Positions 14,871 to 24,658 of a stretch of DNA of 24,658 nucleotides are shown here, piece by piece. Positions within the stretch are counted from its first letter, which is position 1, and each line of letters begins with the position of its first letter. The notes below the pieces were generated by a model that had not been told where the DNA came from, searched no databases, and was given only the letters and a program-made list of their open reading frames with translations. Source of the DNA: a virus; the IMG/VR virus record IMGVR_UViG_3300028327_000814; one strand, written 5' to 3'. The position numbers and the translations under genes are program-made.

Positions 14871-15008
14871 ATGCTGGTATGGCAGACCAGCATTGACAGA
14901 AACATAGCGTATTCAAGCCCGATTTTTTAATGAGGGGTTGGCAGTTGCTATGTTCTGCCTATGCTGTTTGCCGCAGCGCCCTTCATTAAAGGATTGGGCT
15001 TATTTTAT
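14871..15008 (+). ncRNA. Structured cis-regulatory/antisense RNA with C4- or P4 CI-like architecture
   Basis: A 23-bp stem (14915-14937/14979-15001) encloses two hairpins whose loops are complementary to upstream 14881-14908. A leader hairpin lies at 14871-14893. Confidence 0.7.
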
Positions 15009-15025
15009 TGGTTTGGGAGTATAAA

Positions 15026-15910
15026 ATGACAGATGAATTTTCTACTTTTGTATTAAGTGAAACAACAGTTAATCAGATAAATGCGCTGCCGGATACCATG
15101 CAATTAAAATATTATAAGGCGGTAGCGGATTATGGTTTGAATGGGATAGAGCCTGATTTTATCGGAATGGAATTGGCTGTATGGATTTCAATGCGAGATT
15201 TAATCTTACACACAAAAAGAAAAGACGAAAAATGGCGGCAAAAACAACAGGAAAATGGGAAAAAAGGCGGTAGACCAAAAACCCAAAATAACCCAGATGA
15301 ACCCAAAAAACCCACCGAAACCCAAAATAACCCAGATGAACCCAAAAAACCCACCGAAACCCAAAATAACCCAGATGATAATTGGGTTAATACGGAAACC
15401 CATAATGACAATAACAATGACAATGGAAATGACAAGGATAATGAATTTACTCCAACGGCTTGTGCCGTTGACCAAAAAGAGATTATCCCTGTTTCACCAA
15501 AAAACAAAATTGCGCCCGTTTCCCAGCCGCCGCCCAAAAAACGGGGATCAGTTTTAACTGACGAGCAAAAACCTTTATTCCATGCCGCTAAAGCCTGTTT
15601 TGAAAGTTCCGAGAGGGCTAAAGCAATTATGTATCAGGACAGGGGATCAACGCAAATGCACATGGAAAACCTAAAATTATTTGTAGTCAGGTGTCAAAAT
15701 ATGGCTCCGGAAATAACCGCAGATTTTATGCGTAACGTGCTGGAGCATTTTAAGACAATTATCAACGGCAAATTAAAAGGCAGAGCCGAATTTACGCCCA
15801 GAGCCTTAATTACCCCGTGGATATGGGAAATGGTTATAGGCACGTTGCCGGAAGCCGATGACGAACTGACGGAAAAAATAAGGGCAAGCATAAAGGGGAT
15901 GTTTCAATGA
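15026..15910 (+). CDS. Phage replication initiator with DUF6291-like N-terminal domain
   Basis: YKAVADYGLNGIEPDF...ENGKKGGRPK, then a repeat linker and a DN-rich tract; GGGAG RBS before ATG 15026. Confidence 0.8.
   Translation: MTDEFSTFVLSETTVNQINALPDTMQLKYYKAVADYGLNGIEPDFIGMELAVWISMRDLILHTKRKDEKWRQKQQENGKKGGRPKTQNNPDEPKKPTETQNNPDEPKKPTETQNNPDDNWVNTETHNDNNNDNGNDKDNEFTPTACAVDQKEIIPVSPKNKIAPVSQPPPKKRGSVLTDEQKPLFHAAKACFESSERAKAIMYQDRGSTQMHMENLKLFVVRCQNMAPEITADFMRNVLEHFKTIINGKLKGRAEFTPRALITPWIWEMVIGTLPEADDELTEKIRASIKGMFQ
15281..15378 (+). repeat. 39-bp tandem repeat (about 2.5 copies), probable origin iterons
   Basis: Unit ACCCAAAATAACCCAGATGAACCCAAAAAACCCACCGAA, with an AACCCA core recurring about every 10 bp. 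Confidence 0.85.
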
Positions 15911-18150: not shown

Positions 18151-18548
18151 AACGAATATCTTTTAACCCCCGTTTTATAAACGAAGCTGGAAACGACTTA
18201 ATCAGCGGCAAGATACACACGATACGCCAAAACTATGACTACTGGAAAAAGTTTGAAGGTAAAGAATTAGCCCTGTTTACATGGGAAGGCAAGCCGTACA
18301 ACAGCAAGCAGAGAGTGTTTTGCGTGAAGCGGCTTGTCAGCGTACAAAAAGTATTAAGAAGGCCATGGGTAACAGCAGTTTACGCAGACGATAATTTCAG
18401 AATGGAATTTGAAGGCAAATATTTTGCTAACGCAGAAGACATGGCGCATAATGACGGCTTCAAAGATAAATATGAGTTTAGAGACTGGTTTAAAAGTTAC
18501 CCATTTGGCGAAATGGGAATACTTCATTTTACAGATTTTCAATATTGA
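18147..18548 (+). CDS. ASCH/PUA-like domain protein
   Basis: GKIHTIRQ, LFTWEGKPY, MAHNDGF...FRDWF. Confidence 0.65.
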   Translation: MKRISFNPRFINEAGNDLISGKIHTIRQNYDYWKKFEGKELALFTWEGKPYNSKQRVFCVKRLVSVQKVLRRPWVTAVYADDNFRMEFEGKYFANAEDMAHNDGFKDKYEFRDWFKSYPFGEMGILHFTDFQY

Positions 18549-18558
18549 AGGAGAAAAC

Positions 18559-19398
18559 ATGAACTTAAACAATAAAATTGAATGGCTACAAGGCGGAGCA
18601 ACATGGAACCCAGTTACGGGGTGTCTGCATAAATGCCCTTATTGTTATGCCGCTAAAATAGCAAAGAGGTTTGGCGGTAATTTTACGATGTCAAGAGCAA
18701 GTCCACATGGATTATTAGAGCTTTACGGAAAACCAGAAAATCCTTTTCCAGATAAATTTGACCCTACATTCCACCGCTACCGCCTAGACGAACCGCAGAA
18801 AATAAAGAAACCGCAAAATATCTTTGTATGCTCTATGGCTGACCTGTTCGGGGATTGGGTTCCCGATGAATGGATACAGAGGGTGTTTGACGCTTGCAAA
18901 GCCGCACCGCAACATCGGTACTTATTCCTGACGAAAAACCCTGAGCGGTACAACTACATAAACTGCGACGGGCAAACCCTTGAAGGCTGTAAAAAATGCA
19001 ATGAATGTGAGGGGGAACACCGGGTATTGACAATATACCGTGAAGAGGAAGAGCCTTTTCCTGAATTATTCTTGGGCGCGTCGGCAACCGACAGCGACAG
19101 CCTGCATAGGGCTTATGACAGTGCCGCCGAATGGGTTTCGATTGAACCTTTACTTGATGATGTATATGATGAATGTTTTTCGCAGGACGGAGAAACGCCC
19201 GTAGGTTATAGGGAGTGGGCGCGTTGGAAATGGGTTGTTGTCGGCGCGGAGAGCGGAAACAGAAAAGACAAGGTTATCCCAAAAAAAGAATGGGTACAAA
19301 ACATCGTTGATATGTGCAAGTTTTGGAACACGCCCGTATTTATGAAAGACAGCCTAAAAGACGTTTATGGCGGGCTGATACGGGAATACCCGTGGTAA
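18559..19398 (+). CDS. DUF5131 (Gp37Gp68) family radical SAM-like protein
   Basis: TWNPVTGCLHKCPYCYA, IFVCSMADLFG, FLTKNP, SIEPLL, WVVVGAESG, PVFMK; GAAGGAG RBS before ATG 18559. Confidence 0.9.
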   Translation: MNLNNKIEWLQGGATWNPVTGCLHKCPYCYAAKIAKRFGGNFTMSRASPHGLLELYGKPENPFPDKFDPTFHRYRLDEPQKIKKPQNIFVCSMADLFGDWVPDEWIQRVFDACKAAPQHRYLFLTKNPERYNYINCDGQTLEGCKKCNECEGEHRVLTIYREEEEPFPELFLGASATDSDSLHRAYDSAAEWVSIEPLLDDVYDECFSQDGETPVGYREWARWKWVVVGAESGNRKDKVIPKKEWVQNIVDMCKFWNTPVFMKDSLKDVYGGLIREYPW

Positions 19399-19415
19399 AC
19401 AAGGAGGATATTTAA

Positions 19416-19916
19416 ATGACGTATGTAAAACTTGATATGGAAAAATACATAGAAGGAAAGCCACAGCCGGAAGGGTTTTTTAACGCATTATCACATAATC
19501 AGGCTTATTCTGGCAAAATAAAACCTGATGAATGGTTGGACAAAATTCAAGAGCTTGTCAATTATTTAACTGACGGCGAACTGCCCGAAGGCGTTGAATG
19601 TAAAAGCCCTAAATTATCTCCAAGCATGGCACAAAATGTTCTTTGGTTTTTACAGGAAATAACAAAAATAATACCCGATAATTTTGCGATTTGCGACGGC
19701 TGCGGGGTGTTACATGAGGAGGGTTATTTGAAATACTTTACAACCAACGGGAAATACTATTGCGATTATTGCCTTGATTCCGCGCCCGTAGTCCATTGTG
19801 AAGAATGCGACGAAGAAGCTGGTTATAAAAAAGACGCTTATTCAGAAAAACACGAAATGTATCTTTGCAAGGAATGTAAAAAGATAAAAAGAGAAACTGA
19901 TATTGTTAAACCCTAA
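19416..19916 (+). CDS. Hypothetical protein with four CxxC pairs
   Basis: CDGC, CDYC, CEEC, CKEC; AGGAGG RBS. Confidence 0.7.
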   Translation: MTYVKLDMEKYIEGKPQPEGFFNALSHNQAYSGKIKPDEWLDKIQELVNYLTDGELPEGVECKSPKLSPSMAQNVLWFLQEITKIIPDNFAICDGCGVLHEEGYLKYFTTNGKYYCDYCLDSAPVVHCEECDEEAGYKKDAYSEKHEMYLCKECKKIKRETDIVKP

Positions 19917-19948
19917 AAACCGGACAAATATAAACAAGGAGAAATAAT

Positions 19949-21064
19949 ATGCTTCAAACCTTACAGCTTTTCGGAGAATCATGCCATTTATTAGAACTAT
20001 CCATGAACCCCTGTGTGCAGGGATGCACCTATTGTTACTCTAAAACATGGAAGCGCGAAGACCACCCTATCGAGAAGGTAGTTAATAACATTCTTCACCT
20101 GGAAACCAAACAGGAAGGCTTGCTGCCCTTCTTAATAAGAAAACGCTGGCCAATTACGATTAGCAACAGGACGGACGTAATGTGCGCCCCCGACTGGCGG
20201 GAAAGGCTGTCAGCTATCAAAAAATTAGGCTTCCCGGTCTGCATGGAGACCAAACTGAACAAGGACTATAAGGATTTAGCCCAGATACTCGACCCCAAAA
20301 CTGATCCGATATATCAAACAATAACCGGATTTAACAACAAGTATGAAGAGCATAACCTGTTAAGCCCTGAAGAAAAAATAGAGGCAGCCAAGTGGTTTGT
20401 AGAAAACGGTTTTCATTTTACCTTAGCGGTTAATCCCTTTATGCCGGACAAAGTAACGGCTGAGGAGATTAAAAAGCTCATAGACCTAATAAAGCCCCAC
20501 GGATTAGTCATGTACGATTACCACAAAACCACAAAATCAGTCCATAAACACCTTTATATGGCCGAGTACCCCAAAGAACAAATGGAAGCGGGAAGAAAAG
20601 CCGTGTCCGATTACTGCCGCGAGAAAGGAATACACCACGCCATAGGGGGATTTGAAGAACACCCCTACCCCGAATTAAATCTGAATCTTTACATGAATGA
20701 GAAGTTTTTTGGCGGCAACGCGATAATCTTCCAAGAACTGTTGATTGACGTGATCTCTCAATTCTCCCCCGAATTTGACGTTTTCGATATAACCTTTGAC
20801 ATCTTCTGCGACTTCTACCATAAGCAGATCAAGTATTTTGACGGCTGTATTATGAAAGACACCGATTACTCATTGGGAAGCATAAGGCATCCCTTCAAAT
20901 TCGCCCAGAAAAGATTTGACTTCACCTATTTCTTAAAGAACCTGTGGAACCAGAAGAAACTTCATTTTAATTTTGACTGGTACTCCGATAAATTCGACGA
21001 TGAAGGAAACCTTGTCTATTTCAGGCATAAAGACGGGTTTATGAAAGAGATAGACAAGCGGTAA
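19949..21064 (+). CDS. Radical SAM protein, SplB/photolyase-like subgroup
   Basis: NPCVQGCTYCY (CxxxCxxC), ISNRTD, ETK, TITG, VNPFMP. Confidence 0.8.
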   Translation: MLQTLQLFGESCHLLELSMNPCVQGCTYCYSKTWKREDHPIEKVVNNILHLETKQEGLLPFLIRKRWPITISNRTDVMCAPDWRERLSAIKKLGFPVCMETKLNKDYKDLAQILDPKTDPIYQTITGFNNKYEEHNLLSPEEKIEAAKWFVENGFHFTLAVNPFMPDKVTAEEIKKLIDLIKPHGLVMYDYHKTTKSVHKHLYMAEYPKEQMEAGRKAVSDYCREKGIHHAIGGFEEHPYPELNLNLYMNEKFFGGNAIIFQELLIDVISQFSPEFDVFDITFDIFCDFYHKQIKYFDGCIMKDTDYSLGSIRHPFKFAQKRFDFTYFLKNLWNQKKLHFNFDWYSDKFDDEGNLVYFRHKDGFMKEIDKR

Positions 21065-21860: not shown

Positions 21861-22277
21861 ATGCCGGTATTAACCACCGAAGAGATTAAAAACGACGTTG
21901 AAAGCCTGCTGGGAAAGCCCAAACACCCCGGCGGCAGGCCGAAAAAGCCCAAATATGTCATAAAAAGCATGGTCAAAATAATTGACGAATACACCGACAA
22001 AGCCTTAATTCCAATATTGAAAGAGTGCTGTTTTGAAAATAACTGGGGATACGATTATGTCATGGAACTGGAGCGGAAACATGAAGAGTTATCACGGTCT
22101 ATAAAAAGGTTAAAAACAAGGAAGGAAGCCGTATTGGAAAAAATGCTTTATACGGGGCAGAACAACACGGGGTACATATTCAGCCTCAAACAATTGGGCT
22201 GGAGGGACAAATTTGAAGTTACCGCGCCGGATAACGTGGAAGTGCCTGTCTTTAACAGCGGGAGATTAAGCAAGTGA
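21861..22277 (+). CDS. terS: Terminase small subunit
   Basis: GGRPKK N-terminus and IFSLKQLGWRDK; directly upstream of terL. Confidence 0.8.
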   Translation: MPVLTTEEIKNDVESLLGKPKHPGGRPKKPKYVIKSMVKIIDEYTDKALIPILKECCFENNWGYDYVMELERKHEELSRSIKRLKTRKEAVLEKMLYTGQNNTGYIFSLKQLGWRDKFEVTAPDNVEVPVFNSGRLSK

Positions 22278-23665
22278 AAGAGATCGACATTCCCGACACC
22301 GTAGGCAGCGGGTATGATGATTTTTGGCTGACGGAGAAACGGTATCGGGTCGTGAAGGGCGGCAGGGCAAGCAAGAAGAGTTGTACGTCCGCTTTATGGT
22401 TTGTCTTTTTTATGATGTGGTATTTCCACACATACGGATTGAAACCCTGTTTGTTAGTCGTCCGCAAATATTACAATACTCATAGAAATTCCACCCGCTC
22501 CCAACTTATATGGGCTATAAACAGGTTGGGCGTTCAAAACTGGTGGAAAATCCCCAAAGGCGAAAACACCCTCACTTATTTGCCGAGCGGTCAAGTAATC
22601 TTATTCAGGGGCATGGACGATCCCGACAGCATAACCTCTATAACGGTATCTGACGGGCATTTGGTATGGGCGTGGATTGAGGAAGCCTACCAGCTGCACG
22701 ATGAACAGGCTTTTGACAAGTTGGATATGAGTTTCAGGGGCGAAGTACCTTATCCCCTGTTCAAGCAGTTGACTTTGACCTTTAACCCGTGGAGCGACAC
22801 CACGTGGATTAAACCCCGGTTTTTTGACAATCCCGATGAGGACACTTTCACCCTTACAACGGACTATACCTGCAATGAGTTTCTGGGAGACGACGACAGG
22901 GCTATCTTTGAGAAAATGAAGGTAAACAGCCCCCGAAGGTTCGCCATCGAGGGGCTGGGGAATTGGGGCATTGCTCAGGGCTTGATTTACGGCACTTATA
23001 CCGACAATCCAGATTTATTCCATGTTCCCGACATTCCCGAAGGCGAAAAGATAGCGATTATTACGGCAGGGCTGGATTACGGCTCAGGCGAATTGGGGGA
23101 CGGCACAAAAAAAGGCAAAACGACCTTAGAGGCGACGGCGATAACAACGGGATTTGAAAGGGTCTATGCCGTTGACGAATCGTTTTTTAAGACCGACTAT
23201 GACGCTGACGAATTGGCTGAATGGGCAGTGGAATTTCTTAAAAAACTGAAGGAGCGGTACAATCTGCCAATTATTCTTTACTCCGAATGGGCGGGGGGAA
23301 TGGCGTTAAATAACCAGATTAGAAAGAAAATCAGGTTAAGCGGGCTTTTAGGGGTGTCCGTCCAGAACTGCTATAAAGGGCAGATTAACGACCGTATAGA
23401 CTTGGAGCAAATTCTGCTGTCCGAAAAGCGGCTGTTTTTTACCGCCCGTGTGCCGGGGCTGAAAGCCGCCTACTCTACCGCCATATGGGATACCGAGAAA
23501 CAGAAAAAAGAGGGAAAACCGATAAGGCTTGACAACGGCACAATCTTAATTGACCCGCTAGACGCGCATGAGTACAGCATAAACAGTTACGCGAATTATT
23601 TAACGGCTTTTACTCCAAAAGAACCGCGCCAATATAAACACGGGTTGAAAGTTACTGCTTCTTGA
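22274..23665 (+). CDS. terL: Terminase large subunit, PBSX family
   Basis: KGGRASKKS (Walker A), FRGMDDP, WIEEA (Walker B), TFNP, GLDYG nuclease motif, DPLDAHEY. Confidence 0.92.
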   Translation: MKEIDIPDTVGSGYDDFWLTEKRYRVVKGGRASKKSCTSALWFVFFMMWYFHTYGLKPCLLVVRKYYNTHRNSTRSQLIWAINRLGVQNWWKIPKGENTLTYLPSGQVILFRGMDDPDSITSITVSDGHLVWAWIEEAYQLHDEQAFDKLDMSFRGEVPYPLFKQLTLTFNPWSDTTWIKPRFFDNPDEDTFTLTTDYTCNEFLGDDDRAIFEKMKVNSPRRFAIEGLGNWGIAQGLIYGTYTDNPDLFHVPDIPEGEKIAIITAGLDYGSGELGDGTKKGKTTLEATAITTGFERVYAVDESFFKTDYDADELAEWAVEFLKKLKERYNLPIILYSEWAGGMALNNQIRKKIRLSGLLGVSVQNCYKGQINDRIDLEQILLSEKRLFFTARVPGLKAAYSTAIWDTEKQKKEGKPIRLDNGTILIDPLDAHEYSINSYANYLTAFTPKEPRQYKHGLKVTAS

Positions 23666-23834
23666 TTTTCGGTCTGCCTCTGGGCGGCGCGTTAATTATT
23701 ATTTCATAAGCGGAATTGTCATAAACAGCCTCTTTAGTTAAAGGTTTAATTCCCGCCGCTTCCAACCTTTTCTTGACCGTCTTTAATTTAAGCCCTGATT
23801 TTTCCGCCATTTCGCTGGCTGTCATTCCCTTCAT
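23652..23834 (-). CDS. Small HTH DNA-binding protein with C-terminal RGRPK (AT-hook-like)
   Basis: MTASEMAEKSGLKLKTVKKRL HTH; divergent from the RAMP-like gene; minus-strand TATAAT at 23853-23858. Confidence 0.75.
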   Translation of the reverse strand: MKGMTASEMAEKSGLKLKTVKKRLEAAGIKPLTKEAVYDNSAYEIIINAPPRGRPKIKKQ

Positions 23835-23875
23835 TCCCCTATTATCGGCTAAATTATAAAAAAAATATAGATAAA

Positions 23876-23918
23876 AAACTATATTTTACTTGACAAAATA
23901 TAGTTTATAAACGATAAT
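23876..23918 (+). promoter_or_regulatory. Sigma70 promoter with an inverted-repeat operator straddling the -35
   Basis: TTGACA(23890)-17 nt-GATAAT(23913); AAACTATATTTT-7 nt-AAAATATAGTTT at 23876-23906. Confidence 0.8.
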
Positions 23919-23972
23919 TTTACAAGCCCCGCCTGTATAGGCAGGGTAAAAAATATCTTTAGGAGAAAAACT

Positions 23973-24632
23973 ATGGCGAGAACAGCGAAAAAGGAAGAGG
24001 AAGTAGTAACCCTCAAAGAGTTGAAAGTCGAGCCGTTGACTTTAACGGTAAAGGGCGATTCACCCCTTGTAGTCCATGCTTGGGGAGAAAAGGCGCGGCG
24101 TGAAATGCTGGACAAGCAGATGAAAAAGGCAAAATCCGTAAAGGAAGCGAGAAACCCCGCCGCCGATGTCATTAATTCCCTGTACTGGATTGACGGCAAG
24201 CCAAAGGAAATGACCGAAGACGCTTTTAACGAAGCGATTAAAAAGGGCGCGAGGTTCGGTTTTCCCGCAAAGGCTTTTAAGGCGGCGGCGGTATCGGCTG
24301 GTTATCGGGCGGGAACTATTAAAAACAAAGTTACCATGTTTGCCGCTTTTCATATTCAGGGCGAACTGGTAGAGATTATCGGCAAGCCAAAACCCAGAGA
24401 AGACATGGTACGATTGGCGGGCGCGAGCGGCGTTGCGGATATACGGTTCAGGGGCGAATTCCCCGAATGGAAAGCCGTATTAAATATTACTTTTTGCCCC
24501 GACATGATTTCTCTTGAACAAATAGTAAACCTGTTTAATCTTGGTGGCTATTGTTGCGGCGTTGGTGAAATGCGCGTTGAAAAGGGCGGCGAAAATGGAA
24601 TGTATCACGTTTTGACCAAAGGCGAAAAATAA
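23973..24632 (+). CDS. Stand-alone Cas7/RAMP-like protein (candidate Vipr-type RNA-guided effector)
   Basis: LTVKGDSPLVVH first strand, FGFPAKAFKAA (PxSSLKG-like), REDMVR...DIRFRGEF thumb hairpin, C-terminal G-rich loop GVGEMRVEKGGENGMY; AGGAG RBS. Confidence 0.75.
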   Translation: MARTAKKEEEVVTLKELKVEPLTLTVKGDSPLVVHAWGEKARREMLDKQMKKAKSVKEARNPAADVINSLYWIDGKPKEMTEDAFNEAIKKGARFGFPAKAFKAAAVSAGYRAGTIKNKVTMFAAFHIQGELVEIIGKPKPREDMVRLAGASGVADIRFRGEFPEWKAVLNITFCPDMISLEQIVNLFNLGGYCCGVGEMRVEKGGENGMYHVLTKGEK

Positions 24633-24637
24633 AACTT

Positions 24638-24658
24638 GGCAGGCAGGGCATGACGCGT
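24638..24658 (+). ncRNA. Possible start of a GGY-NN periodic guide-like RNA, truncated by the window end
   Basis: GGC-A-GGC-AG-GGC-AT-GAC-GC-GT begins 5 nt after the RAMP stop codon; only 21 nt are visible. Confidence 0.45.

Follow-up and report, generated by a model that had tools for sequence, protein, structure and literature searches.

What is the 5-nt rhythm that begins at the very end of this viral DNA, directly behind a putative RAMP gene? We analyzed a window of 24 658 nt (the whole stretch of DNA under study), which corresponds to G000:C1:2549-27206 of a 38.7-kb IMG/VR virus record (47% complete), so that the downstream DNA was readable as well (contig L001). The original prediction took the last bases of the window for the 5′ end of a guide RNA, in which constant triplets bind successive RAMP subunits and variable dinucleotides spell a gapped target. 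Very probably, the tract opens an array of four vrRNA guides that belongs to a VIPR (Viral Interference Programmable Repeat) system carried by a phage, and the adjoining 219-aa gene encodes the Vipr protein of this system. The locus is a further example of the already known VIPR systems, which silence genes in a CRISPR-like manner and were first described in 2026. The features of the putative cassette that lie in the window are as follows.

23890..23918 (L001 1391-1419), + strand: sigma-70-like promoter (TTGACA, 17 nt, GATAAT; 11/12), a consensus match only, upstream of vipr.
23973..24632, + strand: vipr, encoding a 219-aa Cas7-like RAMP protein, as predicted from phrog_4652, the family profile and the modelled fold.
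24638..24658, continuing to genome 27425 (L001 2139 to ~2378), + strand: start of the putative vrRNA array, guide 1 (GGCA GGCAG GGCAT GACGC G...), from periodicity, block structure and the layout of relatives.

The proposed alternation of a GGC triplet with variable dinucleotides is present in the sequence: the TAA stop of the 219-aa ORF (23973-24632, +) directly precedes 24633-24658, which reads aactt and then GGCA GGCAG GGCAT GACGC GT. These 26 visible bases are indeed weak when taken alone, as had been anticipated for so few units, with a lag-5 identity of 0.43 that was equalled in 4.6% of shuffles. The expected continuation lies beyond the window, where the rhythm extends to genome 27425 (~ window position 24877) and brings the tract to ~245 nt.

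The tract consists of 49 consecutive G-K-Y-N-N units, 45 of them 5 nt and four of them 4 nt long. G comes first in all 49, position 2 is G (62%) or T (31%), position 3 is T (60%) or C (31%), and positions 4-5 are unbiased. Identity at lags of 5, 10, 15, and 20 lay above shuffles (z = 4.1 to 5.3, with 5.2 at lag 5), whereas identity at lag 3 lay below them (z = −3.1), and for this reason we regard the tract as periodic and non-coding. Against dinucleotide-preserving shuffles the lag-5 z was 5.5, with 0/2000 shuffles reaching the observed value. The tract is G/T-rich and strand-asymmetric. Rfam returned nothing close to threshold in the tract region, and Tandem Repeats Finder detected no array, the units being too degenerate.

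The only other high lag-5/10 identity in the record was found at window 15278-15377 (genome 17826-17925), an A/C-rich tandem repeat of ~36 nt with units built on AACCCAAAA and AACCCAGATG. It lies within a 300-aa ORF (15008-15910) and codes for a recurring 12-residue peptide rich in Lys, Pro, and Asn.

The upstream gene had been called a RAMP, and structure prediction agrees. An AlphaFold model of the 219-aa protein, based on an alignment of 49 homologues, reached a pLDDT of 85.5 and a pTM of 0.80, and a Foldseek comparison with the PDB gave 36 matches at E ≤ 0.001 (best 1.2e-5), which among the matches listed were all Cas7-type RAMPs, the best being Csm3, Cmr4, type VII Cas7, and gRAMP. As modelled, the protein is a Cas7-type RAMP fold. 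It matches phrog_4652 in PHROGs (E = 8.9e-20, function not annotated) and nothing in Pfam, and PADLOC reported no Cas family match above threshold, the lone match below threshold being a non-Cas candidate model, PDC-M54A (E = 0.066). A single-sequence comparison with the SUSP1 Vipr protein gave E = 0.11, and a profile of the 49 homologues matched PDB 36pp_D, ‘SUSP1 Vipr protein’, at E = 4.8e-10 (next match E = 0.43), with profile positions 17-193 of 197 aligned to chain residues 3-188 of 202.

At the core of VIPR systems is Vipr, a minimal RAMP encoded by phages, which polymerises along vrRNAs made of 9-16 GGY-NN repeats, with GGY hidden and NN presented by each protomer (bioRxiv 10.64898/2026.04.26.720920, 10.64898/2026.04.26.720927). 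When the NN bases pair with DNA, every third base is left out, usually a codon wobble position, and transcription is silenced by an R-loop triplex; in nature, the systems are directed at satellites and rival prophages, and often at regulators of lysis and lysogeny (bioRxiv 10.64898/2026.04.26.720920, 10.64898/2026.04.26.720927). Of the seven types (I-VII), some have ‘staggered arrays’ in which the end of one guide is the start of the next (1-nt overlap), an arrangement that is mentioned in the VIPR preprint and was not confirmed there by RNA sequencing. Characterised type II systems come from Escherichia phage SUSP1 (PDB 36pp) and a Pseudomonas fulva prophage, and in SUSP1 the residues H17, R138, D177, W178, and R179 hold the two guanines and the pyrimidine, as seen by cryo-EM. 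VIPR loci ‘typically’ include vap, and Vipr with vrRNA silenced without vap1, which merely enhanced protection (all from the same two preprints).

The 219-aa protein retains most of these RNA-contacting positions. Its G-loop is CCGVGEMR (residues 194-201), within which G196-V-G198-E199-x-R201 is invariant across the family, and H35, R160, E199, and R201 are conserved and align with the GGY-contacting H17, R138, D177, and R179 of SUSP1 (E199 being an Asp-to-Glu change). A lower-confidence hairpin at about residues 140-160 of the model holds the conserved R158 and R160. The exception is the Trp that stacks on G2, W178 in SUSP1, which is M200 here and also Met in two close relatives (L004 and L005) but Trp in ≥ 90% of the family. 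We found no convincing covariation between this G-loop residue (Trp or Met) and the base at repeat position 2.

Several properties of the locus are those of VIPR systems: a small, phage-borne, Cas7-like protein with a GVG(D/E)xR G-loop, and adjoining non-coding tandem pentamers of GGY-NN (YNNGG) with hypervariable NN. Others set it apart. The protein is only distantly related to SUSP1 Vipr and has Met for the G2-stacking Trp, repeat position 2 is often T, vap is absent from the record, and the guides lack the conserved structured 3′ tail or pseudoknot of type II. A type II architecture is thereby excluded, and VIPR membership is not, because tail-less ‘staggered’ arrays are described in other types.

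Class 1 CRISPR effectors provide a second comparison. The predicted fold is shared with their Cas7 proteins (Csm3, Cmr4, type VII Cas7, and Cas7-11), as would be the periodic binding of guide RNA by protomers, with pairing interrupted by the thumb. However, the VIPR period is 5 nt with two pairing bases, in contrast to 6 nt with five pairing bases for Cas7, sequence identity is ~10%, and the locus has no repeat-spacer array or other cas genes, its neighbours being a terminase and an integrase; a search for a CRISPR-type direct-repeat array at the locus was likewise negative.

A 5-nt RNA period is also found in the trp RNA-binding attenuation protein (TRAP), which binds (G/U)AG-NN repeats, one triplet per subunit, with spacers that carry no information. 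TRAP has an unrelated fold and forms a closed ring, unlike the helical filament of VIPR, in which the spacers are the information. TRAP-like ring wrapping was dropped as an explanation of the tract after the protein and the targets had been identified. The same holds for a cluster of pac, ori, or Chi type, a Pro-rich ORF on the minus strand, and a rut site for Rho on this C-rich strand.

The extended tract is organized in four blocks starting at genome 27186, 27250, 27304, and 27378, with 12, 10, 14, and ~9 pentamers, respectively. Every block opens with GGCAGGC, that is, a 4-nt unit GGCA followed by GGC, which slips the phase by one base and accounts for all four 4-nt units. Blocks 1-3 are phase-perfect, and block 4 degenerates into unrelated A-rich sequence. 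The blocks abut without non-periodic spacer, 3′ tail, or hairpin between guides, and the predicted fold energy of the array RNA equals that of shuffles (z = +0.47). Two parts of the original prediction are thereby amended: the window does end in the start of a guide, which belongs to an array of four guides and not to a single one, and GGCAGGC-initiated units do recur, but the hairpins that were to end them are missing.

The same punctuation is seen more widely. Across 63 arrays from related loci, 69% of 267 GGCAGG-to-GGCAGG spacings equal 4 mod 5, with modes at 44-64 nt. Judged from sequence, this tail-less, phase-slip-punctuated layout fits the ‘staggered array’ type of the VIPR preprint. 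We tentatively propose, as a possibility somewhat short of an even chance, that it is the one-base GGCA register slip, and not a ribozyme or a structured handle, at which one Vipr filament stops and the next one starts. The slip would be either a cleavage site or a mere break of the protein register on an uncut transcript.

We searched viral contigs with the 219-aa protein and obtained 68 loci at 39-90% identity, of which 57 distinct loci were tabulated. A G-rich period-5 tract (G ~0.4-0.5) lies on the vipr strand within 1.3 kb in ~53 of the 57, and in three of the four tract-less loci the contig ends ~0.5 kb past vipr. Placement varies: the tract is found immediately downstream of vipr, ~0.5 kb downstream past one ORF, upstream, or on both sides. 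The closest cellular homologues (≤ 52% identity) are scattered over Firmicutes, Acidobacteria, and Alphaproteobacteria.

In the four closest relatives (L002-L005; Vipr 85-90% identical), the array follows the stop codon by 5 nt and comprises three to six blocks, with GGCAGGC spacings that are always 4+5n (49 to 89 nt). All of them share the GGY frame and use GGCAGGC as punctuation, whereas block numbers differ and the NN strings are unrelated both to those of the record and to one another; the predicted alternation of a constant triplet with variable dinucleotides thus extends to a complete difference in NN between close relatives.

Homologues 36-38% identical to the 219-aa protein, all labelled ‘hypothetical protein’, occur in Gordonia phages (ODay and UmaThurman), in ~27 Mycobacterium phage records (Donkeykong, Brocalys, and others), and in Cyanophage Cy-LDV1. 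The cultured-phage records include the following, each annotated ‘hypothetical protein’.

MW534375.1, 10406-10933: cultured-phage homologue.
NC_051648.1, 37424-37912: cultured-phage homologue.
NC_031249.1, 32786-33316: cultured-phage homologue.
BK059895.1: cultured-phage homologue.

By sequence similarity, phrog_4652 and these hypothetical proteins of Mycobacterium and Gordonia phages and of Cyanophage Cy-LDV1 are probably Vipr proteins.

To read the guides, the four blocks were converted to NNx patterns, in which the NN pairs are specified and one base is skipped per unit. No self-target was found in the record itself at ≥ 80% of positions (best self match 62-78%). The full-length exact patterns of guides 1, 2, and 3 matched nothing in the viral contigs.

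Two 9-unit sub-patterns of guide 1 (18 specified bases) each matched four viral contigs, and all eight matches extend to 21-23 of 24 NN positions. In all eight, the site coincides with the zinc-binding motif (HEXXH) of a Peptidase_M78 (ImmA/IrrE) ORF; the match is in frame on the sense strand, and the skipped bases fall at codon wobble positions. Because few chance matches are expected at 18 specified bases, and chance ones would not share a motif, we take these matches as non-chance. When 401 genomes from a single bacterial class were scanned with up to 3 mismatches allowed, neither guide 1 (forward) nor its control gave any match. A reading of guide 1 as a family-wide ‘motif guide’ for any M78 gene is not supported by this 0/401 result, and since none of these genomes match, the guide appears specific rather than a generic M78 matcher.

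One of the targeted M78 genes lies in a 97% complete phage (L082), between an XRE-type repressor and the integrase in an immR-immA-int lysogeny module. In this textbook arrangement (L082 1196-4601), the genes for an antirepressor (AntA/KilAC) and a Cro-like HTH protein run divergently from the XRE repressor, behind which lie the M78 protease, fused to zinc ribbons, and then the integrase.

For guide 3, ten units gave three matches in metagenome contigs, one of which extends to 25 of 28 positions. This match (L085), with 12 perfect units in a row, follows the reading frame of a gene for a major head protein (phrog_267, E = 1.5e-49); the head-gene target comes from this single metagenome contig. 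The other two, which lie in genes on the other strand, are chance matches. The second half of guide 3 matched nothing in viral contigs, and the lone match of its first half, 21 of 28 positions in an NlpC/P60-like gene, was likewise rejected as chance.

No target was found for guides 2 and 4 in the scans run. Guides 2, 3, and 4 were absent, at up to 3 mismatches, from the records targeted by guide 1, so that no convergence on one rival phage was seen. The decoded targets fit genes of rival phages, namely an ImmA/IrrE protease gene for guide 1 and a major head protein gene for guide 3. The suggestion that the NN string spells a gapped target is borne out for these two guides, with one skipped base per unit (21-23/24 and 25/28), and the matches follow the VIPR pattern in obeying the one-skipped-base rule at the wobble position, in pointing to lysogeny-switch and structural genes of rival phages, and in sparing the record itself.

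The cassette lies past the terminase large-subunit gene, with its tract ~1 kb beyond that gene, and ahead of a convergent 206-aa ORF (no family). The record (window 21861-24658 and L070 1-11710) runs from the small and large terminase genes through the VIPR cassette, the 206-aa ORF, and a tyrosine integrase to Mu-like baseplate, DNA-circulation, and tape-measure genes on the opposite strand. Terminase genes that are not followed by portal and capsid genes are an unusual layout, which could reflect rearrangement, an inserted element, or misassembly. In L005, the cassette sits between the tail terminator and tail tube genes. At the DNA level, similarity to close relatives begins ~30 nt ahead of vipr, takes in the gene, and stops inside the array after its first units. 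From the differing placement here and in L005, and from similarity that is confined to the cassette, we conclude that the cassette moves between phage genomes.

The products of another group of adjacent genes in the record (window 18409-21064) are a 329-aa DUF5131 protein (phrog_2045), a protein of 166 aa that matches a zinc ribbon weakly, and a 371-aa protein whose radical-SAM-like match falls below the Pfam cut-off.

In relatives, a partner gene of ~185 aa (phrog_15946, function not annotated) accompanies vipr, located on the far side of the array in some cases and in the gap between array and vipr in others, and Cyanophage Cy-LDV1 carries it as well. Two copies, 27% identical to each other (E = 1e-10), are located as follows.

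L005 4058-4615: ~185-aa partner gene.
L018 3537-4100: ~185-aa partner gene.

Its recurrent position suggests that the phrog_15946 gene is probably the accessory (vap) gene of this clade. No phrog_15946 homologue was found in the 38.7-kb record.

This absence is among the observations that we counted against the VIPR reading, together with the similarity ending inside the array, the Trp-to-Met change in the G-loop, the lack of targets for guides 2 and 4, and the fact that the skip rule is established for type II, to which the Vipr protein here is only distantly related. Several of these bear on the rival explanation that survives best, in which the locus is VIPR by descent and now a decaying remnant, its accessory gene and array end lost in rearrangement and its silencing gone. 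The missing vap candidate, the degenerate block 4, the loss of homology within the array, the W200M substitution, and the odd record layout (TerL, VIPR, integrase, inverted tail genes) all favour it, and the cassette may be truncated, with its 3′ end missing, given that block 4 runs into unrelated sequence. However, the vipr ORF is intact and 90% identical to relatives over its full length, the Met in the G-loop is common to L004 and L005 with their long clean arrays, blocks 1-3 have kept perfect phase, and two guides match phage genes at 89-96%. The absent accessory gene counts for less in a record that is 47% complete and in view of the silencing reported for Vipr with vrRNA without vap1. 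We therefore regard a decayed locus as unlikely.

A far less probable explanation is that the tract works as DNA and not as RNA, for instance in packaging or replication, as a cluster of Chi-like sites, or as a G-quadruplex element near the terminase genes. The position of the tract ~1 kb past the large-subunit gene and its G/T-rich, strand-asymmetric composition are compatible with such a site, but the cassettes of relatives are placed elsewhere (between tail terminator and tail tube in L005, for example), and the tract travels with vipr and not with terminase. For duplex DNA, a repeat every 5 bp makes no simple sense, and the hypervariable NN positions decode to genes of other phages.

That the tract is coding scarcely merits consideration: the ATG at 24650, the candidate start of an ordinary gene, begins no + strand ORF of ≥ 40 aa (none begins within the tract before L001 2294 in the ORF listing), lag-3 identity is depressed, and the 86-aa minus-strand ORF that covers most of the tract (L001 2185-2445; a membrane helix and a Pro-rich tail, 12 nt past the stop codon of the 206-aa ORF) is matched by neither NCBIfam nor PADLOC and is an artefact of C/A-rich composition, the arrays of relatives differing at every NN and in length, so that no conserved protein is encoded.

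Under the VIPR reading, vipr and the array would be co-transcribed from the predicted promoter at 23890-23918, and the transcript would give rise to four guides of 9-14 GGY-NN units, bounded by the 4-nt GGCA slip in GGCAGGC. As was shown in the preprints for the SUSP1 and P. fulva systems, one Vipr protomer would bind each repeat, hiding GGY and presenting NN; the NN bases would pair with DNA, every third target base being skipped, and the resulting R-loop triplex would block transcription. These steps, from the assembly of the filament and the sequestration of GGY to triplex formation and silencing, are here carried over by homology from the preprints. In rival temperate phages, the expected effect would be disturbance of the lysogeny operon and of capsid production.

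With the discovery of VIPR only months old, each well-read natural locus is useful, and this one adds features of its own: a tail-less, slip-punctuated array, of which it is a clear example, an absent vap, a G-loop Trp replaced by Met, and two decoded targets. Guides delimited by a register slip, if true, would represent a new way of marking guide RNA boundaries. As read from sequence, the published rule (one protomer per pentamer, with NN read and one base skipped) appears to fit a locus outside the characterised type II clade, and the two concrete natural targets, the catalytic-motif region of an ImmA/IrrE gene and a major head protein gene, fit the model of inter-phage warfare.
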